Notes: a model not told the origin generated them from the letters alone. Positions 1 to 64,000 are shown, counted from the first letter of the stretch. The stretch is DNA of 64,000 nucleotides from a virus (IMGVR_UViG_3300045988_175036:52290-116289); one strand, 5' to 3'. Made by a program: numbers and translations.

Positions 1-217
1 AAAAGTTTTTCCCCAAGTCAATATGGGAAAATATTACTTTATTCCCATTCTGTAAAAAAATTTGAACATATTTACTATTCTCCTTATCAAAAGGACACCA
101 AATGATATCCTCTTTTGAGACATATTTTAATAAGGGGGTAATAGCGTTAGGTGGGGTATAGTATTCATCAGAAGCTTTATCCGTTTTTGCTGTTAAATAA
201 CCTTTATTTTGTCCCAT
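1..217 (-). CDS. Adenine DNA methyltransferase-like protein; N-terminal 72 aa only, gene runs off the left edge
   Basis: ATG at 217-215 after GGAGG, overlapping the upstream stop (TAATG). Hand translation MGQNKGYLTAKTDKASDEYYTPPNAITPLLKYVSKEDIIWCPFD. The DEYYTP...IWCPFD N-terminus resembles EcoRI-methylase-like adenine MTases. Not in the ORF track. Confidence 0.4.
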   Translation of the reverse strand, partial: MGQNKGYLTAKTDKASDEYYTPPNAITPLLKYVSKEDIIWCPFDKENSKYVQIFLQNGNKVIFSHIDLGKNF

Positions 218-636
218 TATACCTCCACGATTTTATAGTCGCATCCATCAATAGAACGGATATAATTTAAAACATCTTTATATTCTGGTTTTGTAAACCA
301 GTTATTGAGAAGATAGGTATATGTAACTTTCTTAGCTTTTAAAGCCCTTCCAATTTTTTGATATTGGAGAAGTTTGAAAGCACAAGTTTGTAATTTTTCA
401 TCAACTGAGCCGGCCACTTGTTGATATTTCTTCTCATAAATTTTTAGTTCTCCATTTACAAAATAAGCCTCATCTGGCAATAGCTTCTTAGAAATTAGTT
501 TTCTCCAATCAATCTTTTCTTGAGACAAATACTTATATAGATTATGCTTAGATAAATCTATGCCTTCTTTTTGAGCTTGACAGATTTCTTCCCAAACTAA
601 ACCACTAGAAGTATCTCTAATCATATTCTTCATCAA
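217..636 (-). CDS. hypothetical protein (139 aa)
   Basis: ORF track; start overlaps the stop of the upstream deaminase gene (633-636); no recognised motif. Confidence 0.5.
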   Translation of the reverse strand: MMKNMIRDTSSGLVWEEICQAQKEGIDLSKHNLYKYLSQEKIDWRKLISKKLLPDEAYFVNGELKIYEKKYQQVAGSVDEKLQTCAFKLLQYQKIGRALKAKKVTYTYLLNNWFTKPEYKDVLNYIRSIDGCDYKIVEV

Positions 637-1052
637 ATAATTTTCTCCTTTACATAATCTCCACTTTCATTCAAATAATAAACTGTCTTTATTCCTAGGT
701 CTCGTATCAGTCGCGCGCACGCCGCGCAGGGTCTGCTACAGCCTCTTTCTCCATTTTTGTGTTCTCTATAAACATAGATATTGACTTTATCCCATTCAAT
801 ATCTTTCCCAATAAGAGGAGAAAGTGCAGCGACCTCTGCGTGTTCTCGCGCGATTGAATTCTCGTAGTCATCAAAATTTCGATAAATATTATAACGGTGC
901 TGAAGAGGACGAGTCTTCTGACTATTACAAGCAGAAGAAAGAATCCTGTTGCCACTGACAACAACCGCGCCGACCTTTGTCTGCTTGAAATCAGATAAAT
1001 AACTGACTTCACGCGCGATATTGAAAAAGCGTTCTTCTTTGTGCGTCATCAA
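633..1052 (-). CDS. deoxycytidylate (dCMP) deaminase
   Basis: Zinc-binding signature HAEVAAL ... PCAACARLI of the cytidine/dCMP deaminase family. Confidence 0.85.
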   Translation of the reverse strand: MMTHKEERFFNIAREVSYLSDFKQTKVGAVVVSGNRILSSACNSQKTRPLQHRYNIYRNFDDYENSIAREHAEVAALSPLIGKDIEWDKVNIYVYREHKNGERGCSRPCAACARLIRDLGIKTVYYLNESGDYVKEKII

Positions 1053-1080
1053 ACTAGTCCCCTTTACTCTTTATAAAAAT

Positions 1081-1109
1081 ATTATATCAAAAATTTTAGT
1101 TTTTTTCAA
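1081..1109 (-). promoter_or_regulatory. sigma-A type promoter, conserved cassette
   Basis: Minus strand TTGAAA (1109-1104), 17 nt, TGaTATAAT (-10 at 1086-1081), followed by ATTTTTATAAAGAG. Confidence 0.6.
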
Positions 1110-1311
1110 ATTCTTGCTTTGCTTGTAGATAGCCATTTGTATATGCATCCTTCAATGCCTTTTGGACGTTAGTCCAGACACTAGGGAAAAGACGCATTAT
1201 GACATAGGAAAATTTTATTGGATAGTCAGTTGGATAGAGAAGCAAACTTTCTGAAAGTTTTGTAATCTTTTCTTTTGTTGTGGTGACTTCATTTATTTCT
1301 TTACTTTCCAT
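1096..1311 (-). CDS. hypothetical protein (71 aa)
   Basis: ORF track only. Confidence 0.4.
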   Translation of the reverse strand: MESKEINEVTTTKEKITKLSESLLLYPTDYPIKFSYVIMRLFPSVWTNVQKALKDAYTNGYLQAKQEFEKN

Positions 1312-1322
1312 ATTATTCCTCT

Positions 1323-3551: not shown

Positions 3552-3742
3552 TCTTTTTCCTCCGTGTAACAATATTCACAATAGCCATTTATAAAATTGT
3601 GCTGACATTGTGCTTGAAGTTTTTTATTTTCTTCTAATAATTTAGCAACAGTATTATTTAGGGTGAATTTATTTGGTGTTACTAGCTGTTCAATAATACT
3701 ATTATTTTCATCTATTTTTTGTTTTATTTCTAAATTAGTCAT
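3548..3742 (-). CDS. hypothetical small Cys-containing protein (64 aa)
   Basis: ORF track; translationally coupled at both ends. Confidence 0.45.
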   Translation of the reverse strand: MTNLEIKQKIDENNSIIEQLVTPNKFTLNNTVAKLLEENKKLQAQCQHNFINGYCEYCYTEEKE

Positions 3743-4871
3743 TTATAAACATCTCCTTTTCATAATGGACAGAGATTGTCTCGTAGAACATCTTGAAAAG
3801 TTCATAATTCTTTTCACGAATATATATAAAGCTTTTCCGATTTTCCTCAAGGGAAGTCTTTGGAGAGAGAGATTTCTCTGTAAAAATTGGACCAGAATTA
3901 TACTGAGATTTTGCTTTTAGGTAATAATATAATGTGGTCAGTTTTCTATCTTGGCTTTTTTGAAAAAATTCATTCCAAAGTCGAAAAAGGTTTTCTAACT
4001 CTTGTGAAAATGGAGATTCTCTACCAAGAGTAAGTAGAAAATTTATCTTATGAGTAGATAAGTATAAACACTGTCTGTATACAATAGGTAGTGTTTCTAG
4101 GATTTGCTCATCACAAGATGTTGTGGAAAACGGATTATATATAATTTTCCGCGCAGTTCTAGCAGGAATATCATCACATAGTTCTTTTACCATTTTATCA
4201 GGCATCAGGTCTTCATATTGAACTTGGAAAATACCTGAAAGAGGTGGAAGACTAAGCCATTCATAGAGTTCTTCTTTTGTGCTTACAGTTGGCGGAAATT
4301 TCATCCCAATTGGCAACACGTGAATTTTTTCAGGATTATTTACACCAAAACGAGAATTAGATAACTCTTTCAGGAAACTAACGGCTCCTTCAACTTGTCC
4401 AAGGTTATAATCATGAAGAATAATACCTGATGTTTTTGGAAAAATCTGTGCTTTGAGTTGCTTTTCCACAAAGCTATCAATACCATGGCCTTCACGCGAA
4501 AGACGTCCATGTCCTGCGCGTAAAATCCTCTTAAAAGTAGCCTTATCTACTCCGAAGTAACTTTCATATTTTTCATACGGAGAAAAATCAGGGACAATAC
4601 TTTCAATTTCTTTTGAAAAAGGAACATAATTTTCTAATGATACCGCGCGACCACCATATCCTACATTAGGTAAAAAAAGTTCTTTTGGATACAATCTATC
4701 CTCGTAATCTTTTCTTACAAAAAAAGAATTATAGCGTTCTGGCTCCAAAGTAGGAGCCAAAAGCGTTATATCTCTTTTCTTCTTGTAGTAGGCAAGAAGC
4801 TTCGCACACTCAAGATTTGGCATTACATTCCAATAATGAAAAAAATCATAATCATGAATTCCAACTATCAT
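3735..4871 (-). CDS. hypothetical protein (378 aa)
   Basis: ORF track; overlaps its neighbours by a few nt; no motif recognised. Confidence 0.55.
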   Translation of the reverse strand: MIVGIHDYDFFHYWNVMPNLECAKLLAYYKKKRDITLLAPTLEPERYNSFFVRKDYEDRLYPKELFLPNVGYGGRAVSLENYVPFSKEIESIVPDFSPYEKYESYFGVDKATFKRILRAGHGRLSREGHGIDSFVEKQLKAQIFPKTSGIILHDYNLGQVEGAVSFLKELSNSRFGVNNPEKIHVLPIGMKFPPTVSTKEELYEWLSLPPLSGIFQVQYEDLMPDKMVKELCDDIPARTARKIIYNPFSTTSCDEQILETLPIVYRQCLYLSTHKINFLLTLGRESPFSQELENLFRLWNEFFQKSQDRKLTTLYYYLKAKSQYNSGPIFTEKSLSPKTSLEENRKSFIYIREKNYELFKMFYETISVHYEKEMFIND

Positions 4872-7800
4872 TCATCTAACTCCAACCTTGGGCGCATTTT
4901 TATTTTACCATCTGGATAAACTTCTTCAATCAATTCACAAAGATGGTAGGGGGTTGCTTTATATTTTTTCGCGCGGAAGCTATCACCATCACGAATTCCA
5001 CACACTACAATTTTGTTTCCACGTGCAAAAGTAGATTTTTCTTTGACGTGTTTCTTGCCATCCACACCTTTTTCAGAAATTTGGCGATCATAGATATTGA
5101 AGACTTCACCAAAAATCTTTACTGTAACAACCCCATCTGGCGTCAAAAGTGTCACTAATTTCTTCATCTTATCACGGTCAAGAACGGTTCCATAGATACG
5201 ATGAATTTTGAAGATTGGAACACGTTTACCCTTGATTTCAAAAACTCGCTCAATCTCTGGTTCTTCTGCTAAGTCAAAGAAGTTCGAGAAGCCATAATAT
5301 GTGTTATCGACATGTGCGAGTTCGTGTTCATGGAAATAACAAGAAACGCTGTCCATTTCCCATTTACTTATATTTCCAAGGCAATACTTATTCCACACAT
5401 CTTCTGTCAATCGACTATTTACAGAAGAAAGAAGTTTTTGATTATTCTCTTTGACGTAGGGACGAATTCTATCCATTACTTCATCATAGATTTTTTTCCA
5501 CGTGATTTGCTTTATGCCAAAGCCACTTTCCGCGCGAGCGTCCTCAACCAGCTTGTCGATTGAGAAGTTCTTATCAAAGAAAACCATCGCAATGTTATCT
5601 AAAAGGAATAAATCATCTACTTTGGATGTCTTTAGATATTTGTTGAAGTTGAAGACCCGGCGAACAAAATCGTATTCGCTTGGAATAAGTCCAAAATCAA
5701 TCAACATTTTCATATTTTGGAGAGTAATACGTTTCTTTGCGTCGCTAATAAGGTTGATATATTCGTGCATCACTTGTTCGCGTTGGCCGAAACTGTCGAA
5801 AGCGCCGCACTTTATGAGATTTACCATTTGAGGCTTGTTGATTTTTACTTTTGAGAGGAAGTCTGGGATTGAAGTGTAAGGACGATTTTCGATTATTTGT
5901 TTTACAATATCTTGACCGATTTTTGTAATACCATTCATACCAAAACGAATAATTGAATTTTCAACATCTGGAGAAAATGTAAAAGTGGATTTATTTATAT
6001 CTGGTGGAGCAACTGTAATTCCAGCTGCTTGCATTTTTCCAAGCGCCGCGGCAATTTTACCGTAATTACTTACTTTTACTTTTTTCTTCTTTTTAGTTGT
6101 TAAGACTTTATTGACTTCAGTATCATCTTCTTCATCTTCTTCATCGTCATCATCGAATTCTTCTATGCAATCAGTATATTTTTCTATTGTGAACGTGTCC
6201 TCTTCTTCATTTCCATCGTTATCATCACCCTGTTGTTCATTGCCACCACTGTCACTAATTAAGCAAGCACAATTCCAAAAAATAATTGGAAAGCGATAAG
6301 CCAAATTCATTTCTTGCAAAGCCACAAGAGAATATGAAAGGGTGTGCGCACGACAAAATGAGTAACCACGCTGAACACGAAGTAAAATGTCCCAGACATA
6401 ATGAACAAGTTTCATATCACATTTTTTTTCTTGAGCATTTTCAAAATAAGCCTTTTCACATTCGTCAAAAAGCTTACCTTGTTTTTTTGCAATTGCCTTA
6501 CGGCATTTGTCTGCAAAGGTCAGACTATTACCACCAAGTTGTTCTTCTTGTAGAAGCTGCATCATTCCTTCTTGACTTTCACAAATACCATCGGTAATAG
6601 CGTTGTGCGACATTAGCCAATCAATATTGACCTGACTTAGGCCATACGTGCACATCTCTCGTTCCCATTCTATGATATTGGAACGATATCTGGCCCACAT
6701 ATCAAGAGGTTGTTCTGCACCCTTTTCAGGAGCCATGAGACGAATAACTGAATTCAAAACCGCTAATTCACTGACACTTTTTGGATGCGTTAGCGCGATA
6801 CCATTGATACCACTTTGTTTTTCCATTTGAAAAAGACTGGTAATTTTATGCTCCCAAACCATTTGCCACATTTTTGGGGCGGTGCGCTCAAGATTATAAA
6901 TTCCAATGATTTTCTCATAGGTTTCTCGTAATGTTGCTTCTGGTTTTATATAGCCATATTCTACTAATAAATCTAACTCATTATGAATTTTATCAAGGGC
7001 TTCAATAGAGAGCATGTCAATTTTAATGAGTGATACATCCTCGCAATCATGTAACTCAAAAGCAGTAATAATCGTACCATCTGGCGCGCGCATTAGAGCC
7101 GTAGAATTAGTGAAAGGTTCATCAACAAAAATTACTCCGCCAGCATGTATTCCAACTCCACAAATCAGTCCTTCAATTTTAGAAGCTACTGCCCAAACTT
7201 CTGGATAATTTTCCGTCATTTCAAAAACAAATTGTTTGATTGGCTTGAAGTCCTTCTCTTCGTCACCATTCATGCATTGTGATAAAGACCGTAACTGGCC
7301 GCGGTCGGATGGAATTAGTCCAGCTAGATAAGAAGCAATATCAACCTCAATATTGAGGCCGCGACAGGCAGTTAGAATAGCAGACTTGGATTTTTCGGTT
7401 TTGAAGGTTGCCACATTAGACACTCTGTCTTCGCCATAAAAGTCTCGAAACTTTTGAAGGACTTGTGCACGCTTACTTCCTTCGATATCTGTATCACAGT
7501 CAAGAACCGAAGCTCGATCAGGGTTCAAAAAGCGCCAATGGAATACTTTCGTCTCTTCAAGAAGCGGGTTTATTTGAGTAATTCCAAGTACGTATAGTAG
7601 AATAAATCCTGCACCAGAACCCCGCCCTGGCCCAACAAGAGAACCAGCCTCCCAGCACAAATCAATATTTTTTTGAAGATTTAGATAATATGCAGACCAA
7701 TGAGCATTATTTTTGATAGAAGAACGCCAAGTATCATCGAGACACACATTTATTTCTTTATAAGCCTCATCCGTTTGAAGCCCGCGTCGAGATTTTATAC

Positions 7801-8880: not shown

Positions 8881-9174
8881 TTATTCGCCAATTATATGGA
8901 AAGTTTTATCTGGAAATACCTTCTTTATTCTAACCCTATCATCATGTTCGGCCACGTCAAAAAAGCTCCATCCCTTATGTAAGCTCATTATTCCTACAAT
9001 TCTCCATGGTTCTTCATCAATTAAATAATAAAGTTCGTCTATTTGAATTTTTTTATAGATATTTTCGTCTTCAAAAAGAATATAATTTTCAATTTCTTCT
9101 AAAGATTGAAGAGTATTAGGGAGTGAAGCAACTAATTCTTTTGTAAAATTTTCAATTTTATAAATTTTTATCAT
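8881..9174 (-). CDS. hypothetical protein (97 aa)
   Basis: ORF track only. Confidence 0.45.
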   Translation of the reverse strand: MIKIYKIENFTKELVASLPNTLQSLEEIENYILFEDENIYKKIQIDELYYLIDEEPWRIVGIMSLHKGWSFFDVAEHDDRVRIKKVFPDKTFHIIGE

Positions 9175-9964
9175 TTTCTTTCTCCCATTGTTCTTTTAGC
9201 CATTTGCGGAGTCTCCATGCAGGCAAATTTGGCGAAGCAACACATTGAAGTAAATTTTTATAATTACATTCTTTTAGCTTTTTTTCTAACCACTCTTTTA
9301 TATTATCGTCACATCTAAAAACTATTTCATTAGGACAGGTTTCACCTTCATCCAATAGCTTTATTGTCCCCCAAGCGGAAACACGGAAGTCCCAAGGATA
9401 ATTTAATATATCATCTGGGTGCTTATATTTACCAGTCCGAAAGATATGCCTGCATTCTAAAATTCCTGAAATGTCATAATTTTGTTTATGTCCATTCTTA
9501 CAATAATGATATATATTCAAGCAACAATGAATTTTTCTTCCGCTATAAGGTAAAATTCCTAAGTCTTCACTATATAATAGTTCAGTGTCTTTCATTGTTC
9601 TATTTTGATTTAATTGACTAATTGGCTGAATGAGTGAAATATATGGCGAATGAGTTAAAGAAGCCTTTATAAATTGAACAGAAAGTTTATTAGCTCTACC
9701 AAAAGGGGGGTTGCCAATCACAAGAGATTTTTCTTCATAAGGGAGTTTTATATCTCTATAATCAGCTTGAATAATATTTGGGCCTTCAGGCAAAATATCA
9801 TAAGCTAATGTGTTATTTGGCAAATAAGCCAGATATGCCCCAGCTCCTGCTGATGGCTCAATAATTCTGTCCCAATCTGTTCCAAGAATTTCAAAAGTTT
9901 TTTCAACGCAGTACTTGGCTATACTATTTTCAGTATAATATTTATCATTTGCAATTTTTCCCAT
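9158..9964 (-). CDS. N6-adenine DNA methyltransferase (gamma-type)
   Basis: SAM-binding motif I IIEPSAGAGAY and catalytic motif IV VIGNPPFGRA. Confidence 0.8.
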   Translation of the reverse strand: MGKIANDKYYTENSIAKYCVEKTFEILGTDWDRIIEPSAGAGAYLAYLPNNTLAYDILPEGPNIIQADYRDIKLPYEEKSLVIGNPPFGRANKLSVQFIKASLTHSPYISLIQPISQLNQNRTMKDTELLYSEDLGILPYSGRKIHCCLNIYHYCKNGHKQNYDISGILECRHIFRTGKYKHPDDILNYPWDFRVSAWGTIKLLDEGETCPNEIVFRCDDNIKEWLEKKLKECNYKNLLQCVASPNLPAWRLRKWLKEQWEKENDKNL

Positions 9965-12250: not shown

Positions 12251-13305
12251 TACACTTTTACTCTCTCCTTTATCAGTTGACGAAAGATTTCTTCTCCTTC
12301 ATCAGCTGGGCTGTCTTTCTTTTTTGTTATATTTTTTCTGTCATAAACAAAAGAAAATCTACAATAATTTTTATATTTATTACAAATCTTCCAAAGTTTT
12401 TCAAAATATTCTGTGCTTCCTTCTTTTTCTTCGTTATCCAAACAAAGAATAATTTCTCTTGGGTGCGCGAACCGCATCAAAAGGTCAACTTGGTATTTAT
12501 TGAACTGACTGCCACAAATGGCCACCGCACAATTCGGTGTAGAAAAATTTTCAGAAAGAAGTACAGACTTTTCCGCTTCAAACACATAGCAAATGCCTCT
12601 TTCTTCAATATTTTTCCTATTCTGAAAAAGTCCATACAAATTGAAAGAGAGAGGATGAGAATACCAAGTATTTTCTACCTGAATTGGCATATATTTACCA
12701 ACATTTTCAACTTCCCATTCATCGAGCGCGCGCCCTCTAATTCCAACTAGTTTTCCATTTACATCAAAATGAGGAATAATAATTTTATTCTGAATTGGTG
12801 AATAAAGTATCCCATACTTATCCATTGTTTGTGCCGTAATTCCTTCTTCCAACCATTCAACTGGATAATAATGTTGAAAAGTTTCAAGAACCTTAGAAGA
12901 AAATTCTGGGAGTTCACGTCGGAGTTTTTGTCCGACATACTTGTCTTTATTACTTTTATATTTTGTTTTTAGCTCTTTTTCCTCAGCAAAGTAAGATTGG
13001 TTATAGCTTTGGATAAAACTATAAATATCTTGATACCAATCAAAGACTACTTCACGCGTCTCATACCAATGTTCAACAAATTGAAATATTGACATTGCAC
13101 CGCACGAACTATAGCAGTAAAAAAGATGGGTGTTCTTATAGTAATAAAGTTTCCAAGAAGCCTCGTCTACATTTAGATTGTGACAAGCTGTTTTACAAAG
13201 TAAAAAATCTCCTTTATCAATCCAAGGAACTTCTAACTTATCTAAAATTTTTTCAATATCCTCTGGTTCAAGATTTTCAATTATTTCTTTATAATTGATT
13301 GCCAT
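12250..13305 (-). CDS. dnaG: DNA primase (DnaG-like zinc finger plus Toprim)
   Basis: CHC2-like zinc finger (CKTACHN...FYCYSSCG). Toprim acidic residues (VFEAEKS, CLDNEEKEG). Confidence 0.7.
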   Translation of the reverse strand: MAINYKEIIENLEPEDIEKILDKLEVPWIDKGDFLLCKTACHNLNVDEASWKLYYYKNTHLFYCYSSCGAMSIFQFVEHWYETREVVFDWYQDIYSFIQSYNQSYFAEEKELKTKYKSNKDKYVGQKLRRELPEFSSKVLETFQHYYPVEWLEEGITAQTMDKYGILYSPIQNKIIIPHFDVNGKLVGIRGRALDEWEVENVGKYMPIQVENTWYSHPLSFNLYGLFQNRKNIEERGICYVFEAEKSVLLSENFSTPNCAVAICGSQFNKYQVDLLMRFAHPREIILCLDNEEKEGSTEYFEKLWKICNKYKNYCRFSFVYDRKNITKKKDSPADEGEEIFRQLIKERVKV

Positions 13306-16411: not shown

Positions 16412-16663
16412 CAATTATGTTATCGTAAGGGCTTTTTATCCCTTACTTCTTATACTTCATTTCGTATAAGTTCAGCATATCTTTTCACCCGCTATTGTGC
16501 GGGGACGCGGCCTCTTGGATGGATTATATCTTTTCACCATCTATGCGTTGCGGCTGGGCTGACTTTACCAGTCCTTCGCCTCTGATTAGCGTCTCAGCTT
16601 TCCAGTTTTTCTCCGCGTTTCTCTATTGATTGTTACCAATCAACCGCCCCAGATTATGGTCGA
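16412..16663 (-). ncRNA. candidate group I-like self-splicing intron (252 nt, no ORF)
   Basis: GC-enriched and ORF-free. 5' exon ends in U, intron ends in G. P1 candidate CGCCU/GGGCG with a U.G pair; P10 candidate AUCU/AGAU. GNRA-capped hairpin UUGAUUG-GUAA-CAAUCAA plus several 5-7 bp stems. Confidence 0.55.
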
Positions 16664-16747
16664 AGGCGCGCCTGCCAAGAGCAGATATTTGCCACGAAGG
16701 TCCCTCGAAATAACATTTGGTTGTAAAGAAAGAATATCAATACCCAT
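16664..16747 (-). CDS. AAA_24 / Sak4-like ATPase, exon 1 (28 codons)
   Basis: ATG 16747 with an AGGGGG RBS. Encodes MGIDILSLQPNVISRDLRGKYLLLAGAP. Joined to exon 2 it gives the Walker A motif GAPKIGKT. Confidence 0.6.
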
Positions 16748-28005: not shown

Positions 28006-28007
28006 AT

Positions 28008-46020: not shown

Positions 46021-46028
46021 GAGGGCAT

Positions 46029-46118: not shown

Positions 46119-47907
46119 GGTACTTGTAAGAAATGGAAAATTTGCTACATATGGTGACAAGGTTGTGGAGGTGGAGGCGACCGGCGCAGCTATTTCCGGT
46201 AGTCCTATTGTGGACAATAACTTAGAAAACACTGTACAGTATCGCCAGATGAATGCGGCGGCGGCGTTTATCGCCAATGTGGACTACACCGAAAACGCTA
46301 ACGATTACTCCGTTACGAAGGTCACGCCATATTACTCGGCTACGACGGCCTACAGTAAGGAAGAACCGGATGGGTTGAAGATCAAAGTTCCGTCCAACAC
46401 CGCACTCACGGTTGCACAGGGCGGTAAGACCAGAAGCGACGCGATTTCCGGAGCTGGCGTGATCTACAACATGGAGCCGCTGAAGGCCGGTACATTTTCC
46501 TTCGGCGGCAAAACCTATAAGATTGTGCCAGAGGGTGGAGTGCGTATGATCTACACACCCAGTGTGTGGAACGTCCGTGACCTCGGCGGCTGGGCTTGCA
46601 CCGGTGGCCGCGTGAAGTACGGAAAGATATTCAGAGGCGGACATTTTGGCAATATTTCCGCCGTTGACAAGGCAATGATTGTAGACTGGCTCGGCGTTGC
46701 AACGGATATTGACCTGCGTAACAACGGCGAAACTGGCGGCATTACTGCATCCCCGCTTGGCGGCAGAGTGGAGTATTATCACCAGTCGCTGGATTTTTAC
46801 GCCAACGCAGTCAGCACCAGCACAGCCTCAGTCCGGACGGTAGCAGTCCTAAAAAAGGTTATGGCTTGCGTGGCCGCAAACAAGCCATGCTATTTCCACT
46901 GCATGAGTGGCGCAGACCGAACGGGAACAATCGCCTACCTTCTGCTTTCGCTGCTGGGTGTATCGCAGAGCGACAAGGATAAGGACTACGAGTTGACGGC
47001 TTTTTCGGATGAAGCAGACGGAAAGCGGTTCAGGAACAGCAATTACAACGTCACCAATGGAAATGGGTGGTATCCGCTCATCAAATATTTCCGTGACACA
47101 TACGCTGGCGAAAATGACAATGAAAAGGTTGTGGCGTGGGCGGTCGCCAATGGGATTGCATCTGCGGAAATCAACGCTTTTCGTGCGGCCATGATTTCCG
47201 GGGACGCTGGCGAAGTCGTTGTGCCGCCGCAGGAGTACACTGTCACAAACATCCTGACCGGCTGCACCAGCAGCAATGCAGCAACGACCGTCACGGAGGG
47301 TGACAGCTACTATGCAATCATCACCGCCAGCAGCGGATATACAATGTCCGGCGCGACAGTTCATGTCAAGATGGGTGGCACGGATGTGACGGCGCTGTAC
47401 TATGCAGATGGCATTATCAACATACCGGATGTCAGCGAGAATATTGAGATTACCATCACGGCGGCGGTGTATGTGCCAACTTATACCAACGTACTGCCGA
47501 CAGCCGTAGACCCGAGCACTAAGAGCGGCGTATGGGACGGGAAAGGCTATCGCAATGGCGCATATGCGTCCTCGGCAAAGCCGTACTATGGCACAGATGC
47601 AGCTTACTGGTGTACTGGCGCTATTGCGCTACAGCCGTCTGATGTCATCTATGTCAAGGGTGCAACGCTCGAAGGCAGCGGACATGCACGCTTAGGTGCT
47701 TTTTCGGGCGCTGCTGGCGGTTGCTATTTCTGCAAGGAGTACGCAGCGTTGTCCGGTCTAGCCATGGTGACAAAGCTGGGCGACAAATACTACAAGATAG
47801 TGCTCGATCACAGCTATGCAAACTATACCAACATTGGCTACATCATGTTCTCAGCTCAAGGCACGGGCGATGGCGTTGTGGTGACAAAGAACGAGGTAAT
47901 TGAATAA
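46108..47907 (+). CDS. fibre-associated protein with a Y_phosphatase3-type CX5R tyrosine-phosphatase-like domain
   Basis: VWNVRDLGG, IDLRNNGE and YFHCMSGADRTGT (Cys codon at 46900-46902). Ig-like and beta-rich C-terminal half. Confidence 0.75.
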   Translation: MATKVLVRNGKFATYGDKVVEVEATGAAISGSPIVDNNLENTVQYRQMNAAAAFIANVDYTENANDYSVTKVTPYYSATTAYSKEEPDGLKIKVPSNTALTVAQGGKTRSDAISGAGVIYNMEPLKAGTFSFGGKTYKIVPEGGVRMIYTPSVWNVRDLGGWACTGGRVKYGKIFRGGHFGNISAVDKAMIVDWLGVATDIDLRNNGETGGITASPLGGRVEYYHQSLDFYANAVSTSTASVRTVAVLKKVMACVAANKPCYFHCMSGADRTGTIAYLLLSLLGVSQSDKDKDYELTAFSDEADGKRFRNSNYNVTNGNGWYPLIKYFRDTYAGENDNEKVVAWAVANGIASAEINAFRAAMISGDAGEVVVPPQEYTVTNILTGCTSSNAATTVTEGDSYYAIITASSGYTMSGATVHVKMGGTDVTALYYADGIINIPDVSENIEITITAAVYVPTYTNVLPTAVDPSTKSGVWDGKGYRNGAYASSAKPYYGTDAAYWCTGAIALQPSDVIYVKGATLEGSGHARLGAFSGAAGGCYFCKEYAALSGLAMVTKLGDKYYKIVLDHSYANYTNIGYIMFSAQGTGDGVVVTKNEVIE

Positions 47908-47938
47908 GAAGAAGCGATCATAATCTATTTTTCAAAAT

Positions 47939-47967
47939 TTGAAAAATTCTCAAAACCATGCTATACT
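47939..47967 (+). promoter_or_regulatory. sigma-A type promoter, conserved cassette
   Basis: TTGAAA, 17 nt, TGcTATACT, then ATCTATAGAAAATAAAAG. Confidence 0.65.
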
Positions 47968-47996
47968 ATCTATAGAAAATAAAAGAAGAAAGGAGT

Positions 47997-48764
47997 GTGA
48001 AAAACTTGGCAAAAGCTAGTGACATTATAAAACTCGCAAAAACTTACGTCGGAACAAAAGAGTCTCCCGCAAATTCTAACAATGTAGTGTTCAATACTCA
48101 CTACTATGGCCGCGAAGTATATGATGGCCTGTGGGGCTGCTCATTTCCTTGGTGCGCTACGTTTGTTTGGGACATTTTCCGAATGGCTGGAGCTTCTAGT
48201 CTTTTTTATTATGGAAAGAAAACTGCCAGTTGCTTCGCTATCCAATCATGGGGTCAGCAACAAAAGCTCCAAGTCGGTCGAGATGGTGGCCAATGCGGTG
48301 ACATCGTTCTTTTTGACTGGAATGCTAATGCCCAACCTGACCATGTTGGGCTTATTATTTCTCATAATGACGATGGTTCTTATCAAACGATTGAAGGCAA
48401 TACTTCGGTTACTAGTAATTCAAACGGTGGCGAAGTCCAAATTAGAACTCGCCCCAAGTCTTGTATTATGATGATTATTCGACCGAAATATGAACCAGAG
48501 ACTTCTAATCCGACCCCAACACCAGTAAAGGAGGAAAAAGTAAACGTGGAACTACCAGTCCTAAAGAAAGGCAGCAGCAATAAGTCTGTTCACGCCGCGA
48601 TGGTTCTAATGAAGGAAAAGGGATATTATCCATATACAATTCCTGCTTGGGATAACCTATTTGGCGCGAAGATGGAAGAGGGTGTAAAGAGGATGCAGAG
48701 GGAGCATAATCTTGGCGTTGATGGCATCATCGGCGCGAATTCCTGGAACTTCCTTCTAAAGTAA
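47997..48764 (+). CDS. endolysin: CHAP domain plus C-terminal PG_binding_1
   Basis: CSFPWCATFVWDIF and DHVGLII (CHAP Cys/His); GVDGIIGANSWNFLL. TTG 48006 is better spaced from the AGGAG than GTG 47997. Confidence 0.8.
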   Translation: MKNLAKASDIIKLAKTYVGTKESPANSNNVVFNTHYYGREVYDGLWGCSFPWCATFVWDIFRMAGASSLFYYGKKTASCFAIQSWGQQQKLQVGRDGGQCGDIVLFDWNANAQPDHVGLIISHNDDGSYQTIEGNTSVTSNSNGGEVQIRTRPKSCIMMIIRPKYEPETSNPTPTPVKEEKVNVELPVLKKGSSNKSVHAAMVLMKEKGYYPYTIPAWDNLFGAKMEEGVKRMQREHNLGVDGIIGANSWNFLLK

Positions 48765-48775
48765 ATATAAAAGAG

Positions 48776-48810
48776 CCCCGAAGACTTTAGTTGTCTTCGG
48801 GGTTTATTTT
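48776..48810. terminator. bidirectional intrinsic terminator at the convergence point
   Basis: CCCCGAAGAC-tttagtt-GTCTTCGGGG followed by TTTATTTT. Confidence 0.75.
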
Positions 48811-49050
48811 GTTCCATAGCTCTTCCATTTTTTCTGCACAGCAATAATCAACCCAAAACCAATGGAAGATTAGCTCAATTACGTGTTCTGTGTCAGGAAA
48901 ATTTTCAGCGACTCGACGCACCATTTGATCTGCGAATTCCTCTATTGGAGTATCATAGAGATTTAGATGGGTTTCGTTTGCTACGCACTCTATCCAAAGG
49001 TAGAAAGAATAAATGTCTTGGATAATGGAGAAAAATTGGTCTTTTTTCAT
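48787..49050 (-). CDS. hypothetical protein
   Basis: ORF track frame; ATG 49050 after GAGGA. Confidence 0.45.
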   Translation of the reverse strand: MKKDQFFSIIQDIYSFYLWIECVANETHLNLYDTPIEEFADQMVRRVAENFPDTEHVIELIFHWFWVDYCCAEKMEELWNKINPEDN

Positions 49051-49084
49051 TCGTTTTCCTCGGTAGAAGAAGTTTGAGTTGCCA

Positions 49085-49558
49085 TTATATCGCATCAGCC
49101 TCTGTCCAAGTTTTTATTGTAATTGTCGCGCCGCCTCCGCTAGAGGAACCGGGCGCAGTATAGAGTAAACCATTTGCGTCTACTCCAACAGATTGTGTCA
49201 TTGCGCTAGTTTTTACAACTGGTTTTACTCCTCCTAGAACAGATGCAGATGCTGTTGGGAGAGTATAGTCCGCTGGAACTTTTGTTATTTGGTCAAGGAT
49301 AGATTTATTAGAGTGAGAGTGGCGCGCTGTTGTATTTGCATTGACATCGGTTGTTGTGGGTACAGTGATTGTTTTTTCTTCACTACCGTCATAGGTTGTA
49401 GTAGCCGCGCCTTGAATTACTTTCATAGAGTAGGGATTTTTTAGAGAGGTCGGTATTTGAGTGTTCTCTAGTCCGATAATTGCGTCTTGAATCTCGTTGA
49501 GATTTTGCGCGGTTATTGCTGTCTCGCGTGAGACATATGTTCGTTTTTTAAGTGCCAT
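49085..49558 (-). CDS. tail-fibre-like protein
   Basis: LKNPYSMKVIQGAATTTYDGS parallels LKNPNALTFTGAATGTYDGS in the 45031 gene. Gly/Ser-rich C-terminus. Confidence 0.5.
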   Translation of the reverse strand: MALKKRTYVSRETAITAQNLNEIQDAIIGLENTQIPTSLKNPYSMKVIQGAATTTYDGSEEKTITVPTTTDVNANTTARHSHSNKSILDQITKVPADYTLPTASASVLGGVKPVVKTSAMTQSVGVDANGLLYTAPGSSSGGGATITIKTWTEADAI

Positions 49559-49629: not shown

Positions 49630-51918
49630 TTAGGCTTCGGTGACTTCAGTTGCGGTTAGAGCACCAGTATCATCAACTGTTATTTTGAATTTTTTAGTGG
49701 AATTAGGCGTTGAGGAGGAGATTAGGATTCCATCATAGACGTGCGCAGCAGTGATATAGTTACTATCATTTTCAAGCTTAGATATTTTTGAGGGTGTATG
49801 GTCATCAACATATTTCTTAGTAGCAGGATGGTAGTCTGCCGTCGGGGTGAAAGCTGCCGTGTTGGTAGTTGTGAGAACATCGACTGCTTTCCAAGAAATT
49901 GGTTTGTGATTATTCCATGCTTGGACTGATAAAATAGAACCAGTTTTTATGTCACTGTCATTGAGTACATTAAAAATGCCATCACAATCAAAGGACTGGA
50001 ACTCCCAGTCTCCTTTAAAGGAGTTATCAACGAGCATAGCGCTTAGTTTGGCTACTATAAGATTATCAGCAGTATACCCAGAAGTTGAGAATACTAAATT
50101 ATATTTGTCGTTATACTCATTATAATGCCAGTTAATAAGGATTAGTCCGTATACATTATTTACAACCCTCAGACCTTGATTAGCCGCATCATATATTTCT
50201 TTTGCTGTTTTATTGGATGTCCAGTGATTTGGTCCGCTAGTAAAATCGACAAGGAACAATTTAGTATTCAAATTAATTTCTTTATCCATCACCACAGTGT
50301 CTGCTGCGCCGTTTTGACCTTGAGTAATTTTAAGGCGCTTGTAGATGCTGTTAGAGACAGTTGAGAAATAAAATGATACAATGTCAGATGAGTCCTTTTC
50401 AAAAGATTCATAGTGGTATGTTTCGTCGTTATAGAATAGAGGACAGATGAATTGAGCTTTAGACGGTTCCTTTGTAGCAAGAAAACCACCGAATAATTCA
50501 ACAGCATTTGGCGGGCTACATAGAAGCGTTCCATTGTTAGATTTAGTAATTAACACAGATTTAATGATTGCTTGTGGGATTTCTCCACTCTCCACGTAAG
50601 TAAAATCGATACCAGATGAACTGGCTTTATATTTTATATCAACATAGCTAATAACTGGTACTAAACCACTGCCAAATCCGTCAGGCGCTGTATTTATATC
50701 AACGACCATAGGACTTGCGATAATCCACGTCATTTGAACGTTTGCAATTTCTCCGCTATCGTTTCTGTCTACTACTAAACCATTTGGAGATAGCAGTGAT
50801 TCATCTAAGTTTATAGAATAGTCATTTGGATTCTCGCTTTTTGCGAGAGCTGCTTTGACCTCGTCCCAGGTTCGATCAGTGGACCAGGTTTTGGTATCTT
50901 GGTTGTAAGTTGGGGTGATGATAAAGAGAGAATTGCCACCACCTTCAAAAGTCCAGGCGATGGGGGACGGAGTTACGCTTCGCATATTCCATGTAAAATT
51001 GCCTTTCTTACCATCTGCTGTGGAAACTAGGTATTTAAAAACCGGATAATTGTTATCATGATAATATCCTATATACGTTACAATTACAGGATAACTAGTG
51101 GCAGTAAAACCTAAAGTGGCTTCTATGGTGCTATTAGAAGATGCGAATATCATAGTATTTCCTTTAGACCTGGTAATATCCCCCGCTAATGTATTTTTAT
51201 CTATGATGTTATTATTGACGTTTCCATTAATTTCTCTACGTATAAAAGGCTTATTTGAATCACGATCAATGACGATATAGTTAACTGTGTCTCCATCTGG
51301 CGTGTTGCTAAGACTATCGGCCTTAATACCACCAACTGTTTCATTGGTAGCTACAGGAATAAAGTCTGAAGGTAATGGCACTGCAACTTTAATTATAATA
51401 TACCAATCATCATTTTTAAATGTAATGGTATTTCCAGTTTTATTTTCGATTTTAATATCAAATTTACTGGAACCAGAAGAAAAATAAATTCGCGGAGTCA
51501 ACTTCAGTCCATTGTCTGCTGTTATAGGTTTGCAAGTATAAGGATTCGTGCTATTAGTAAATGCTAATAAATATTTTTTACCTTCAAAGTACATCACTAA
51601 ACAATTTTCTCTACTTTTTTCAAGTAAGAGTTGACCGGTTATGCCTTCAGAATAAGTAAATATACGATACGTCACTTCGTCATCTTTATAAGTAGAAGTG
51701 GTGCCTTCTCCAGGTTTAGAAGTAGAAGTAGCTGCTACTTCCTCTCTGTAATAACCGACCCTATTTTTGATATAATCCTTCGCGGTTTCATCATTCTGAT
51801 CCCAATCTGCTTGAACTTGACTCTCTTCAACCGCTGTATCTACTAAGCCCTCTAATACTGCTCTATTAGTATTATGTGGCGTCTCCATTACATAGTCTAT
51901 AACATCTTGCTTTGACAT
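49630..51918 (-). CDS. large virion/tail-fibre-like structural protein (762 aa)
   Basis: N-terminal ADWDQNDETAKDYIKNR motif, common in Firmicute phage fibre proteins. AGAGGTG RBS. Confidence 0.55.
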   Translation of the reverse strand: MSKQDVIDYVMETPHNTNRAVLEGLVDTAVEESQVQADWDQNDETAKDYIKNRVGYYREEVAATSTSKPGEGTTSTYKDDEVTYRIFTYSEGITGQLLLEKSRENCLVMYFEGKKYLLAFTNSTNPYTCKPITADNGLKLTPRIYFSSGSSKFDIKIENKTGNTITFKNDDWYIIIKVAVPLPSDFIPVATNETVGGIKADSLSNTPDGDTVNYIVIDRDSNKPFIRREINGNVNNNIIDKNTLAGDITRSKGNTMIFASSNSTIEATLGFTATSYPVIVTYIGYYHDNNYPVFKYLVSTADGKKGNFTWNMRSVTPSPIAWTFEGGGNSLFIITPTYNQDTKTWSTDRTWDEVKAALAKSENPNDYSINLDESLLSPNGLVVDRNDSGEIANVQMTWIIASPMVVDINTAPDGFGSGLVPVISYVDIKYKASSSGIDFTYVESGEIPQAIIKSVLITKSNNGTLLCSPPNAVELFGGFLATKEPSKAQFICPLFYNDETYHYESFEKDSSDIVSFYFSTVSNSIYKRLKITQGQNGAADTVVMDKEINLNTKLFLVDFTSGPNHWTSNKTAKEIYDAANQGLRVVNNVYGLILINWHYNEYNDKYNLVFSTSGYTADNLIVAKLSAMLVDNSFKGDWEFQSFDCDGIFNVLNDSDIKTGSILSVQAWNNHKPISWKAVDVLTTTNTAAFTPTADYHPATKKYVDDHTPSKISKLENDSNYITAAHVYDGILISSSTPNSTKKFKITVDDTGALTATEVTEA

Positions 51919-53982: not shown

Positions 53983-54432
53983 ATGAGCATTGATTATACC
54001 TTTTATATGAAGACAGCTAACAAAGAGTTTTATCCGATTGCTTCTTTTGGTGGCGGTTCTATGGTTGGCGAAGCTTTGAACATCCAGTTCAGAAGCAGTA
54101 ACTTTTGCAATAGACGAGTACTTCATGAAGAGGAGCTGCGCCAGATGGTTGCTGAGAGAAACAATCGCGCGCGCGAACATAAAGCAATGATTCGTAAGTA
54201 TCAGAAACGACAGGAAGAAATTGGCAGTTGGACGAATTCTACAGATGAAAAATATAGTCTGATTACTGAACTCGATGACATGATTGATGAGGAAAAGTGT
54301 GATATGGACTACTGCACGCGCAGTGCGGATTTCTTTGAATTCCTTTTGGATTTTATTGATATGGCGAAATACGCTAGTCCGGATGACCCTAAGATTGATC
54401 CTGAAGACTATATCTATTGGGAGATGACCTGA
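53983..54432 (+). CDS. hypothetical protein (149 aa)
   Basis: ORF track; AAGGAGG RBS. Confidence 0.55.
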   Translation: MSIDYTFYMKTANKEFYPIASFGGGSMVGEALNIQFRSSNFCNRRVLHEEELRQMVAERNNRAREHKAMIRKYQKRQEEIGSWTNSTDEKYSLITELDDMIDEEKCDMDYCTRSADFFEFLLDFIDMAKYASPDDPKIDPEDYIYWEMT

Positions 54433-55110: not shown

Positions 55111-55184
55111 TTACACTTAGAAAAGCTGAAGAACGAATTAAGCGAACCGCAGTATAGACTGATATTTTGAAAGGAGAAGAAGGT

Positions 55185-56000
55185 ATGCCTGTAAATGATG
55201 AACTTGGTAAAAGAATGAAAGAGTTTTATGAATCGGTTCCTAAGACTCGACTTGTGCGGAAAACCCCCGTTGCAATTCGTATCGATGGTAAGGCTTTTCA
55301 TACATTCACACGTGGTTTCGAGAAGCCGTTTGATAGGGTTTTAATGAAGGCAATGCAAGAGACAATGAGATATTTGTGTAAGAATATTCAGGGTTGTGTA
55401 TTCGGCTATACACAGAGTGACGAAATTACGCTTATTCTTATTGATTATCAGAAGCTTGACTCTGATGCTTGGTTTGGCTATGAAGTTCAAAAGATTTGCA
55501 GCATCTCCGCATCGATGGCAACTATGGCGTTCAATAGATATTTTAAAGAACTAATTGAGGATTGCTGTATGACTGATCCGAGAGCATCTTTCGAAACTAG
55601 AAATGTATATATCGATGCTTGCGAACGTGGGGCAATGTTTGATGCTCGTTGCTTCAATATCCCAAAGGAAGAAGTCTGCAATCTGATCTATTGGCGCCAG
55701 CTCGATGCAATCCGTAATTCTATTCAGATGGTCGGTCAAGCATTTTTCTCGTCGAAGGAACTTCATGGCAAGTCCTGCAATAAGATTCTGGACATGCTTC
55801 ACGAGGAGAAGAATGTCAATTGGCATAATTTCCCGATTGCCTGTCAGAGAGGGGTTGCTTGCTTGAAAATTGCTCAAAGAGTTAATATTGCCGGAACTAT
55901 GGACACTATCTCGACTTGGGATATTGATTTTAATATACCAATTCTTAAAGGCGATGACCGTAAGTATGTTGATGATTTGATTTATGTAAAGGAGGATTAA
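55185..56000 (+). CDS. Thg1-like protein (tRNA-His guanylyltransferase / 3'-5' polymerase family)
   Basis: VAIRIDGKAFHTFTRGFEKPFD and GYTQSDEITLIL contain the catalytic Asp and Asp-Glu residues of the Thg1/TLP family. ATG 55185 follows AAGGAG. Confidence 0.75.
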   Translation: MPVNDELGKRMKEFYESVPKTRLVRKTPVAIRIDGKAFHTFTRGFEKPFDRVLMKAMQETMRYLCKNIQGCVFGYTQSDEITLILIDYQKLDSDAWFGYEVQKICSISASMATMAFNRYFKELIEDCCMTDPRASFETRNVYIDACERGAMFDARCFNIPKEEVCNLIYWRQLDAIRNSIQMVGQAFFSSKELHGKSCNKILDMLHEEKNVNWHNFPIACQRGVACLKIAQRVNIAGTMDTISTWDIDFNIPILKGDDRKYVDDLIYVKED

Positions 56001-62639: not shown

Positions 62640-63068
62640 ATGGACGCCGCAAAACGATTATCTCTATCGGCTTTTGAAATTTATCTTTATCTTGTGTCTA
62701 ATAATGGGAATATACAAAAATTATCGCCAAAAGATATTGAGAATAGTTTAGGAATAAAGAGGGCAACTTATTATGAAGCGCTTGGAAAGCTAGAAGAAGT
62801 AGGTTATTTATATAGAGAGAATGGCGTTTTGAAGTTTCGTACCTTACTTCTTGAAAAAGAAAAAGCAATTTCTATAACAGAAGAAGAAGCTAAGATTTTT
62901 GGAAAACTGAGCTTGTGGGGCATTAGAGTTTGGGCTTTTTCTCATTTCAATCATGGTGTTGTCTCGCCTCAAGAAGTTCTTGATTGGTATGAAATTACTA
63001 CTGATTGCCGTAAGAATGTTCGCGCGGGCATTCAAGATTTAGAAAATAATGGACTGATTGAGAGGTAG
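62640..63068 (+). CDS. wHTH protein, paralog of the 23252 initiator N-terminal domain
   Basis: LSAFEIYLYLVSNNGNIQKLSPKDIENSLGIKRATYYEALGKLEEVGYLYRE aligns with FGLYLYLASNKDGYLLELSAAAVEREIGIKKTAYHTALKDLEEKGYLKKE. Confidence 0.55.
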   Translation: MDAAKRLSLSAFEIYLYLVSNNGNIQKLSPKDIENSLGIKRATYYEALGKLEEVGYLYRENGVLKFRTLLLEKEKAISITEEEAKIFGKLSLWGIRVWAFSHFNHGVVSPQEVLDWYEITTDCRKNVRAGIQDLENNGLIER

Positions 63069-63301: not shown

Positions 63302-63302
63302 C

Positions 63303-63662
63303 TCAAGAAGGATAGGGAATAAAATCATAATGAACCTTTGAACTTTCACGCAACTTGAGATAGCCAGTAGCAACCAGTAGATTGAAAGCAGTTTGATAAG
63401 CAGTTTTCTTTACCCCTAATGTAGCAGAAAGTTCTTCTGGACTCAATCCTATTGTATATCCGTCTTCATTTTTAAAAAAATATTCCCAAAGGAGACCGCA
63501 TAATGGGTTTCCTGTACGCTTGACTACAAGACAAACGTCAGCCCAATAAGCTATAATCATAGAGCCTCCCGCGCCGTCAATTCGTCCATTTTTCATTTTC
63601 TTATGATTAGTGACTCGGCGCTGGTTTGGGTAAAAATTCTGATTCTGATTCTGATTTGGCAT
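63303..63662 (-). CDS. wHTH protein, third paralog of the same family
   Basis: LLWEYFFKNEDGYTIGLSPEELSATLGVKKTAYQTAFNLLVATGYLKLRE. N-terminal Q/N repeat. Confidence 0.55.
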   Translation of the reverse strand: MPNQNQNQNFYPNQRRVTNHKKMKNGRIDGAGGSMIIAYWADVCLVVKRTGNPLCGLLWEYFFKNEDGYTIGLSPEELSATLGVKKTAYQTAFNLLVATGYLKLRESSKVHYDFIPYPS

Positions 63663-63672
63663 TTGAATTACC

Positions 63673-63846
63673 TCATTTTTTCTTTTGAGAGTATTCGCGC
63701 ATTGTTTCTCTCAATTCAAAAGTATCTTCAAATATCCAGTTAGAAAATGTTGGGCGAGAAATGTCTTGGATAACTTTGAGTATTTTGAAGTCGCGTGCGG
63801 TCAAATACTCAGCAAGGCGTTTACTATAGATGCGTATGGTTTTCAT
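63673..63846 (-). CDS. small DUF5659-like protein (57 aa), not in the ORF track
   Basis: GGAGG RBS. Encodes MKTIRIYSKRLAEYLTARDFKILKVIQDISRPTFSNWIFEDTFELRETMREYSQKKK. Confidence 0.5.
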   Translation of the reverse strand: MKTIRIYSKRLAEYLTARDFKILKVIQDISRPTFSNWIFEDTFELRETMREYSQKKK

Positions 63847-63876
63847 TCTAACCTCCGATATTTATTTTCTATTTTT

Positions 63877-63905
63877 ATTATACTTTTTTTTAGTTGGAAA
63901 TTCAA
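63877..63905 (-). promoter_or_regulatory. sigma-A type promoter, conserved cassette
   Basis: Minus strand TTGAAT, 17 nt, TATAAT, then AAAAATAGAAAATAAATATCGGAGG. Confidence 0.6.
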
Positions 63906-64000
63906 GTTTCGCAAAATTCTTTTTGCTCAATCATCATTGCCAACCAATCCCTAAATTGAGCATAGCTCATGGCGCGCGCGACCTCGTTTTCTATTACAAC
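63902..64000 (-). CDS. C-terminal end of a gene entering from the right edge
   Basis: Open minus-strand frame ...VVIENEVARAMSYAQFRDWLAMMIEQKEFCET, ending in a stop. The frame cannot be confirmed from the window alone. Confidence 0.3.
   Translation of the reverse strand, partial: VVIENEVARAMSYAQFRDWLAMMIEQKEFCET

Follow-up and report, generated by a model that had tools for sequence, protein, structure and literature searches.

We analyzed a 64,000-nucleotide stretch (IMGVR_UViG_3300045988_175036:52290-116289; hereafter the window, meaning this whole stretch) from the genome of an uncultured phage of ~90 to 120 kb, near-identical contigs of which are found in IMG/VR and ENA. Dispersed along the window are short tracts of alternating C and G, which are a DNA-level, clade-specific, fixation-biased word of 5 to 8 bp. 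Mutation erodes these tracts and a fixation bias restores them, with counts remaining stationary while single sites turn over. This fixation bias, either weak selection or motif-specific gene conversion, maintains the word.

An earlier note, made from the sequence alone, had reported roughly 90 occurrences of the hexamers GCGCGC and CGCGCG in the window, and this estimate was good. Exact overlapping counts are 66 GCGCGC and 86 CGCGCG, and these collapse to 89 maximal runs of alternating C and G that are at least 6 nt long (42 of 6 nt, 34 of 7 nt, 11 of 8 nt, and one each of 9 and 10 nt). The accompanying figures of ~35% G+C and ~2 expected occurrences per hexamer were too low: the window is 38.7% G+C, and the expectation is ~3.3 per hexamer with independent bases and 6.5 GCGCGC and 5.4 CGCGCG under a dinucleotide model (M1). 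The note had proposed dinucleotide- and codon-aware nulls as a check, and the enrichment persists under M1, synonymous-codon shuffling, and codon permutation. Coding sequences contain 60 GCGCGC and 80 CGCGCG, compared with 16.5 ± 3.8 and 14.7 ± 3.6 after shuffling of synonymous codons within genes, a procedure that preserves each protein and each gene's codon usage (z = 11 and 18, respectively; a ~4- to 5-fold excess, with genes called simply as the longest open reading frames [ORFs]). The codon permutation null gives 8.4 GCGCGC and 7.9 CGCGCG. The tetramers GCGC (2.76-fold over M1) and CGCG (2.86-fold) are the two most over-represented in the window. The codons GCG and CGC, which the note had called atypical for this genome, are not rare here, making up 28% of Ala codons and 22% of Arg codons, respectively.

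The tracts as a class, and individual examples, none of which is assigned to a strand, are as follows:
1 to 64000: dispersed alternating C/G tracts, 193 maximal runs of at least 5 nt (104 of them 5 nt), on average one per 330 bp
54166 to 54175: the longest tract, (CG)5, inside an ORF
7084 to 7091: an 8-nt tract, (GC)4, inside the DnaE (Pol III alpha) gene
12726 to 12733: an 8-nt tract, (GC)4, inside the primase-like gene
63972 to 63980: a 9-nt tract at the edge of the window
39590 to 39596: an intergenic 7-nt tract upstream of the prohead protease gene
22651 to 22672: an intergenic GC island, TGCGCGCGTCGCGCCTGCGCGT, between two divergent gene blocks, an example of a tract in non-coding DNA

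Nine of the ten example positions given in the earlier note are correct within 2 nt; there is no site at the tenth, 27228, and the nearest hexamers are at 27204 to 27210. The (CG)4-5 runs that it placed at 7086, 12726, and 54168 are real and are those listed above, and both of its non-coding examples, 22651 and 39590, are intergenic. A site at 22883 lies within a small unlisted ORF and not in non-coding DNA. The island at 22651 to 22672 contains a perfect hairpin, GCGCG-CGT-CGCGC, and lies where the replication block and the rightward block diverge, in AT-rich intergenic DNA; an operator, a terminator, and an origin element are all possible identities.

The hexamer, which the earlier note took as the unit of enrichment, is not that unit. 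An order-3 Markov model already predicts 63 GCGCGC and 54 CGCGCG, which identifies the hexamers as the upper end of an effect of run length. In the window, maximal runs of 2 to 4 nt occur at 0.8 to 1.1 times expectation under both M1 and the synonymous shuffle, while longer runs are increasingly enriched: 3.2-fold over M1 and 1.8-fold over the synonymous shuffle at 5 nt, 5.7- and 3.0-fold at 6 nt, 20- and 6.1-fold at 7 nt, and 29- and 7.0-fold at 8 nt. The BssHII-type hexamer GCGCGC itself falls below its pentamer-based expectation (66 versus 91, z = -5.7), as does TCGCGA (5 versus 17.8). When 71 related loci (1.33 Mb) are pooled, there are 1274 runs of 5 nt, 642 of 6 nt, 400 of 7 nt, 135 of 8 nt, 15 of 9 nt, and 1 of 10 nt, which is a sharp ceiling at 8 nt with runs of at least 9 nt nearly absent. 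None of the other dinucleotide repeats examined (AT, AC, GT, AG, and CT) is enriched, with (AC)n, (GT)n, and (AT)n occurring as often as expected or less often. Dinucleotide microsatellite slippage was rejected as a source of the tracts because of this ceiling, because other repeats are not enriched, and because relatives differ at tracts by substitutions, C>T and G>A for the most part. Hypermutability of the 5-methylcytosine type was also rejected, since tract mutability is no higher than that of shorter CG/GC contexts.

The signal is a property of the DNA and not of one reading frame. All six motif-by-frame classes are 3 to 6 times above the synonymous null, and across the 71 pooled loci the enrichment over M1 is 10.6-fold in non-coding DNA and 6.6-fold in coding DNA. 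Ala-Arg (90 versus 56 expected) and Arg-Ala (80 versus 56) rank among the dipeptides with the greatest excess, and the codon pairs GCG-CGC and CGC-GCG occur 4 to 6 times more often than independent codon choice predicts; the DNA-level pressure is therefore strong enough to shape protein sequence. The 193 tracts in the window show Poisson spacing and are spread evenly along genes, with a roughly uniform density per 4 kb except in imported regions, and we found no clustering, no hairpin pairs, and no preferred position in genes. Flank logos and ±80-nt profiles of ~2700 sites revealed no longer hidden motif or repeat family and no periodic G+C signal; the sole flank preference is T at -1 and A at +1, and no context or periodicity extends past ~5 nt. 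Odd-length runs on the sense strand favor GCGCG over CGCGC by 77:49 in the window and by 971:627 (1.55:1) in the 71 loci.

Two regions of the window stand out as tract-free:
46108 to 47907, plus strand: a receptor-binding-like cassette of the tyrosine-phosphatase family, 53% G+C, with no (CG)3
49630 to 51918, minus strand (opposite to its neighbors): a 762-aa ORF, 37% G+C, with no tract of at least 5 nt where 7.1 are expected

The gene at 46108 to 47907 is 87% identical in nucleotides and 89% in amino acids to a gene of a 15-kb prophage-like or gene transfer agent (GTA)-like element, and the cassette is probably a recent import that is still without the signature. The absence of hexamers that the earlier note described for this high-GC module is confirmed, with none from 44729 to 49321. 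The ORF at 49630 to 51918, for which we found no Pfam or PHROG match, is probably also a recent acquisition.

Eight close relatives, and one more covering only 13 kb, were aligned to the window at 94 to 99% identity. The polymorphism set comprises 9 genomes and 42 kb covered by at least 5 of them, with 2408 singleton single-nucleotide polymorphisms. Singleton losses and gains of short words are as follows:
GCGCG/CGCGC: 82 losses, 31 gains
GCGC/CGCG: 126 losses, 58 gains
other G/C-only 5-mers (control): 137 losses, 117 gains
other G/C-only 4-mers (control): 214 losses, 203 gains
GATC: 17 losses, 34 gains
TTAA: 17 losses, 27 gains
GTAC and CATG together: 25 losses, 40 gains

Tract words differ from the control words in this respect for both 5-mers (Fisher test, p = 8e-4) and 4-mers (p = 9e-5), and a second subclade gives 14 tract losses to 4 gains, compared with 31:71 for controls (p = 3e-4). 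The 82:31 and 14:4 ratios are majority polarized. When variants are instead polarized with an outgroup, which is only 84% identical (16% divergent) and makes the polarization imperfect, the tract loss:gain ratio is 41:5 among singletons, 24:5 at low frequency, and 25:18 among high-frequency derived alleles (p = 0.001). A portion of the singletons may have arrived by recombination. On shared alignment columns, every genome, the outgroup included, has a similar number of tracts, and tract gains are three times more frequent than the context-free mutation spectrum predicts (31 versus 10). Young variants are thus biased toward loss while high-frequency alleles are nearly balanced, and an equilibrium mutational bias, one of the sources that the earlier note had listed, is therefore incompatible with the data. 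The positive function that it had suggested fares better, in that the polymorphism favors a force that biases fixation over drift; selection and gene conversion are not separable by these data.

The same genomes provide a comparison of opposite sign. Avoidance of palindromes (restriction sites) is known in phages (PMC6286503), and in the window it is very strong for GATC (47 versus 270 expected) and TTAA (104 versus 580), with GTAC and CATG likewise avoided. At these sites young variants are biased toward gain, and the loss:gain ratio moves from 25:45 to 36:22 with frequency, opposite to the trend of the tracts. TTAA avoidance is limited to some subclades and GATC avoidance is almost clade-wide, the pattern expected under host-specific restriction pressure. 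The tracts resemble avoided sites in that short G/C palindromes are type II targets and in their population-genetic footprint, but the sign is reversed: they are enriched, and their young variants are biased toward loss. In most comparable phages, SPbeta and many of the co-occurring gut phages among them, GCGC and CGCG are themselves avoided words.

The enrichment follows a phage lineage, as the earlier note had proposed when it called it a lineage-specific signature and not a general GC effect. Among loci whose DnaE is at least 60% identical to that of the window, all 50 other than locus L051 are enriched, with hexamers at 3.5 to 39 times M1, and among loci with a GyrA 41 to 99% identical, 79 of 80 are enriched. 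The enriched clade spans ~28 to 41% G+C and many metagenomes, its tract frequency is roughly one per 300 to 600 bp, and its subclades differ in their avoidance of GATC, TTAA, and CATG. In this large family of AT-rich gut and rumen phages, CGCGCG-type tracts are about tenfold more frequent than expected by chance. Enriched examples include IMGVR_UViG_3300045988_176959, _174094, and _178038, and metagenome 3300045988 contains hundreds of related contigs. In the DnaE tree, from which L051 was left out because its DnaE match is partial, the non-enriched locus L044 (IMGVR_UViG_3300035498_000744) is the sister of the enriched clade. Approximately 79 co-occurring large phages that carry a Thg1-like gene have 0 to 4 hexamers each and are not enriched, often avoiding GCGC and CGCG. 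L051 (IMGVR_UViG_3300031992_000100), a divergent member of the clade, has a DnaE 66% identical to that of the window and only 0 GCGC, 5 CGCG, and 3 GGCC in 20 kb; it was apparently purged of tracts under HhaI/HaeIII-type restriction, and the tracts are therefore dispensable. Two outlying lineages with a GyrA homolog near DnaE, L068 and L092, have intermediate tetramer enrichments of 2.0- and 1.7-fold. The phage gyrase genes lie in the window as follows:
18152 to 22395, minus strand: phage GyrA and GyrB, with the relatives of this GyrA carrying the tract enrichment

This association between enrichment and gyrase is one of descent, with no shown link. By replication module, the closest characterized phages are SPbeta and its relatives, in which the Sak4-like, helicase, primase-like, RecJ-like, and DnaE genes are syntenic with those of the window, DnaE is 38% identical, and the genome size is similar (~100 to 135 kb). 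However, SPbeta has no CGCG in 44 kb, where 19 are expected, and carries a multispecific C5-methyltransferase, whereas the clade studied here has GyrA/GyrB in addition, shows CG-tract enrichment, and yielded no C5-methyltransferase in the ~95 kb that we searched.

The cassette at 46108 to 47907 also points to a putative host. The 15-kb element with its homolog is found in human-gut bacterial contigs of 200 to 400 kb and 63 to 65% G+C, flanked by genes for SLH/LRR proteins, and the single GTDB match is a metagenome-assembled genome labeled 'uncultured Anaerotruncus sp.' The shared cassette would imply a ~37% G+C phage that infects a ~64% G+C host, and the phage tRNAs for AT-rich codons and the dCMP-deaminase/dUTPase genes would fit an AT-rich phage in a GC-rich host. 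Like the phage, the putative host DNA is depleted in TTAA. In an indirectly assigned sample of ~22 kb from each of seven near-identical contigs, GCGC, CGCG, and the hexamers occur at 0.6 to 0.85 times M1 (~0.8-fold), which speaks against inheritance of the anomaly from that host. The equal enrichment in host DNA that the earlier note had named as evidence against its claim was accordingly not seen in this small sample. Temperate phages of 58% G+C with a related endolysin have the words at 0.7-fold and lack both the tract signature and GATC avoidance. Another endolysin relative, from 'Alloiococcus sp. CFN-8' (40% identity), was too distant to use.

The explanation that we favor, with a probability of about 40%, is weak selection on tract density, with the word being read on duplex DNA by a factor that the clade encodes. 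AT-biased point mutation keeps destroying tracts, and the fixation bias that returns them, keeping numbers stationary while sites turn over, would be weak natural selection on density. The tracts would then be scattered along the duplex as sites that a clade-encoded factor, and not a host one, recognizes or binds, with the clade's replication, topology, or modification machinery as candidate readers. The benefit would be quantitative, which is consistent with each site being dispensable, with recent imports being tract-free, and with L051 being purged of GCGC.

Several observations weigh against this explanation. Conservation of individual tracts exceeds the background only slightly, and third-position mutability in runs of at least 5 nt (0.19) is not clearly under that of shorter runs (0.21 to 0.26); any selection per site must therefore be weak. 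Control G/C-only words also drift toward gains at high frequency (51:33 to 39:54), although this trend is weaker, and part of the tract trend is a general GC-favoring fixation bias or a polarization artifact. The association with gyrase is confounded with common descent, and the data fit selection and motif-specific biased gene conversion alike. Finally, Pfam and PHROGs searches of ~75 ORFs in the window and ~20 flanking ORFs identified no protein that reads or modifies the tracts, and we found no C5-methyltransferase, Vsr, or Z-alpha-like protein in ~95 kb (the window and ~30 kb of flanks), a search that covered all but ~20 kb of the genome, probably structural genes, and in which many ORFs have no family. 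The idea in the earlier note that the tracts are a recognition site for a phage enzyme accordingly stays conditional.

Some individual proteins bear on this search. The sole DNA methyltransferase found is of the adenine type (EPSAGAGAY...NPPFGR, with an NPPF motif). This is a 268-aa protein (9158 to 9964, minus strand) that was missed by Pfam, has the gamma-class amino-methyltransferase motifs YYTE..., EPSAGAGAY, and NPPFGR, and occurs in only 6 of the 50 related loci; we regard it as a probable orphan N6-adenine DNA methyltransferase. The gene for a 378-aa clade-specific protein (3735 to 4871, minus strand) lies between those for RNR and DnaE; the protein is present in 47 of the 50 enriched loci and absent from L044 and from SPbeta-like phages. 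Structure prediction gives it a confident alpha/beta fold (pLDDT 89.7), but it has no Cys motif, and Foldseek returned only weak, uninformative matches of the radical-SAM/TIM-barrel-like type. A regular-expression scan for the Z-alpha signature N..Y...P.W found nothing, and the signature is likewise missing from three winged-helix paralogs (23252 to 23938, 62640 to 63068, and 63303 to 63662). These paralogs share the motif LSP..IE..LGIKK.TY..AL..LEE.GYL, and each of their genes adjoins a divergent or early-gene intergenic region. In the gyrase literature, we found no alternating-CG preference.

Very-short-patch (VSP) repair has shifted word frequencies in E. coli, and a comparable process could bias fixation here in place of selection. 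In such motif-specific biased gene conversion, T:G mismatches in CG contexts would be repaired to C:G in recombination heteroduplexes, giving the tracts a transmission advantage without a function. What the data show is a fixation bias and not selection as such; the genomes are strongly mosaic, tract gains exceed the context-free prediction threefold, and the phage encodes RuvC-like, Sak4-like, RecJ-like, and UvrD-like proteins and several GIY-YIG/HNH nucleases. The Dcm/Vsr system of E. coli is alike in that a repair or fixation bias raises a short C/G-containing palindrome with no function of its own. Vsr-type repair itself is established in bacteria (PMC2715241). However, VSP repair depletes T-containing neighbors and needs both a C5-methyltransferase and Vsr, neither of which was found in the region searched, whereas the transition neighbors of the tracts are not depleted relative to M1 (GTGC/GCAC, 1.02; TGCG/CGCA, 1.15; CACG/CGTG, 1.02; ACGC/GCGT, 1.06). 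Isolated GCGC and CGCG, as 4-nt runs, are not enriched, which would be odd for a 4-bp-specific repair, and we consider gene conversion of this kind unlikely. An equilibrium mutational bias of the phage replication and repair machinery, which would make tracts without selection, appears highly improbable: although the clade carries a DnaE polymerase gene of its own and genes of the repair type, site turnover is high, and gains are above the context-free expectation, an equilibrium needs equal numbers of young gains and losses, and losses predominate in all three comparisons (82:31, 14:4, and 41:5) while controls are balanced. SPbeta-like phages with a homologous replication module, moreover, show the opposite pattern. 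We give hardly any credence to codon or codon-pair usage or a composition inherited from the host. GCG, CGC, and GGC are indeed the most used G/C-ending codons of their families and the putative host is GC-rich, but the enrichment survives synonymous shuffling, is equal in three frames, is present in non-coding DNA, and is absent, relative to composition, from the putative host DNA, the endolysin-sharing temperate phages, and the ~79 co-occurring phages.

Chi sequences of Firmicutes have GCG cores (AGCGG, GAAGCGG, and GCGCGTG), and the tracts could be Chi-like, with a GCGCG/CGCGC core that attenuates a host AddAB/RecBCD-type helicase-nuclease, protects ends, and stimulates recombination-dependent replication. 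The enriched unit is a 5- to 8-mer, like Chi sites, and Chi enrichment in lambdoid phages without Rec modules is a documented case of a short word many-fold over-represented genome-wide, inside genes and in any frame, that is read as selection on density (PMC3784561, PMC12315714). Yet Chi is asymmetric, strongly oriented, clustered to one genome end, defined by the host, and found in phages without their own recombinases (PMC12315714), whereas the tracts are palindromic, unoriented (odd runs are merely 1.55:1 in favor of one sense-strand form), uniformly spread without end clustering, and defined by the clade across subclades with evidently different hosts, in a phage with its own recombination genes. 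The Lactococcus-type extension GCGCGTG is not favored (6 versus 8.4 expected), the Lactococcus, Bacillus, and Staphylococcus Chi words are not enriched, and the tract words stand at 0.8-fold in the small, indirectly assigned sample of putative host DNA; a Chi-like role is thus improbable. We are equally doubtful of a structural role, in which the tracts would be Z-DNA-prone supercoil sinks or 'GC clamps' of maximal stability in AT-rich DNA heavily supercoiled by the phage gyrase. Alternating CG has the strongest stacking and is a classical Z-former, (CG)3 is the minimal Z-alpha substrate, and the enrichment co-distributes with the phage GyrA/GyrB, including the intermediate L068 and L092. However, this distribution is phylogenetically confounded, and Z formation improves with length, while here the tracts stop at 8 nt and runs of 9 and 10 nt number 15 and 1 in 1.3 Mb. 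Other alternating purine-pyrimidine repeats such as GT/AC are not enriched, no Z-alpha-like protein was found in the ~95 kb searched, and the tracts have no 10.5-bp GC periodicity or extended gyrase-type context (compare PMC6379681). The Z-DNA element offered in the earlier note is weakened by the same ceiling and the same lack of other repeats. A role at the RNA level, in which self-complementary GC tracts would pair in AU-rich transcripts and stabilize or organize phage mRNAs, could account for a frame-independent signal that extends to the intergenic parts of operons and for the sense-strand excess of GCGCG, and any tract can pair with any other. We think it very unlikely, as close pairs (<50 nt) are not in excess (15 and 17 versus 13.9 and 12.9 expected), the flanks lack extended complementarity, and the sense-strand bias is also expected from the use of GCG for Ala. 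By the features tested, the tracts belong to none of the families compared here.

The rest of the gene content is that of a large phage with an SPbeta-like replication module (Sak4-like, DnaB-like, primase-like, RecJ-like, and DnaE), together with GyrA/GyrB, RNR, ligase, dCMP deaminase, dNMP kinase, tRNAs, and ROOL and drum RNAs; its recombination- and repair-type genes encode Sak4-like AAA_24, RecJ-like, UvrD-like, and RuvC-like proteins and the nucleases mentioned above. Neither megablast against GenBank phages nor tblastn against them with a 560-aa protein gave a match, and a scan of genome contigs with the same protein for a prophage found nothing. The Sak4-like AAA_24 gene (minus strand) looks split in the region 16414 to 16746, with a short first exon-like ORF starting from 16746 (MGIDILSLQPNVISRDLRGKYLLLAGAP...) and the main ORF resuming at 16414; the insert of ~250 to 330 nt matches no Rfam intron family at E < 1. 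The earlier note had placed a hexamer at 16666 at the 5' splice site of an intron. This hexamer lies in the first exon-like piece of a gene that does look split, and the Rfam scan identified no known intron family.

A non-coding RNA island at 34826 to 38953 contains a drum RNA (34826 to 34953, 57 bits), a full-length ROOL RNA (38360 to 38953, 286 bits), and six tRNA hits that include a 95-nt tRNA-Ile(TAT) and tRNAs for Asn, Lys, Ile(GAT), and Leu(CAA). The Thg1-like gene (tRNA-His guanylyltransferase family; 55167 to 56000) has relatives at ~60% amino acid identity in >250 phage contigs, and its carriers are gut and rumen phages of 60 to 230 kb with widely differing G+C. A 312-aa protein (27996 to 28934, plus strand) combines a C-terminal GIY-YIG nuclease with an unassigned 220-aa N-terminal domain, and its gene overlaps the end of the UvrD-like helicase gene. 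Free-standing homing-type endonucleases of the GIY-YIG/NUMOD1 (32067 to 32702) and HNH (30815 to 31240) types are also encoded.

The phenomenon that we describe is a putatively selected genomic word that here is palindromic, unoriented, and specific to a phage clade, and in the literature that we searched we found no description of such an alternating-CG tract enrichment. Positive selection for a restriction-type palindrome across a genome would be the reverse of the usual avoidance, with few precedents except Chi. One possible, though speculative and rather unlikely, extension is that an as yet undescribed system for marking or binding DNA, encoded by the clade, targets the 5- to 8-bp tract and lets an AT-rich (~37% G+C) lytic phage replicate in GC-rich (~64% G+C) Clostridia. 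Such a system might be a new cytosine or guanine modification, or an architectural or topology factor, possibly involving the unknown-fold clade-specific proteins encoded beside the replication genes. If this is true, hundreds of phage genomes from gut and rumen would be experiencing positive selection on tract density across their whole length. Together, the footprints of gain-biased avoided sites and loss-biased tracts offer a simple and general means of distinguishing selection on DNA words from mutational bias in metagenomic phage populations. The signature marks a large uncultured family of 100- to 140-kb gut and rumen phages, can be used to recognize its members, and points to a DNA transaction in these phages that should be directly testable.

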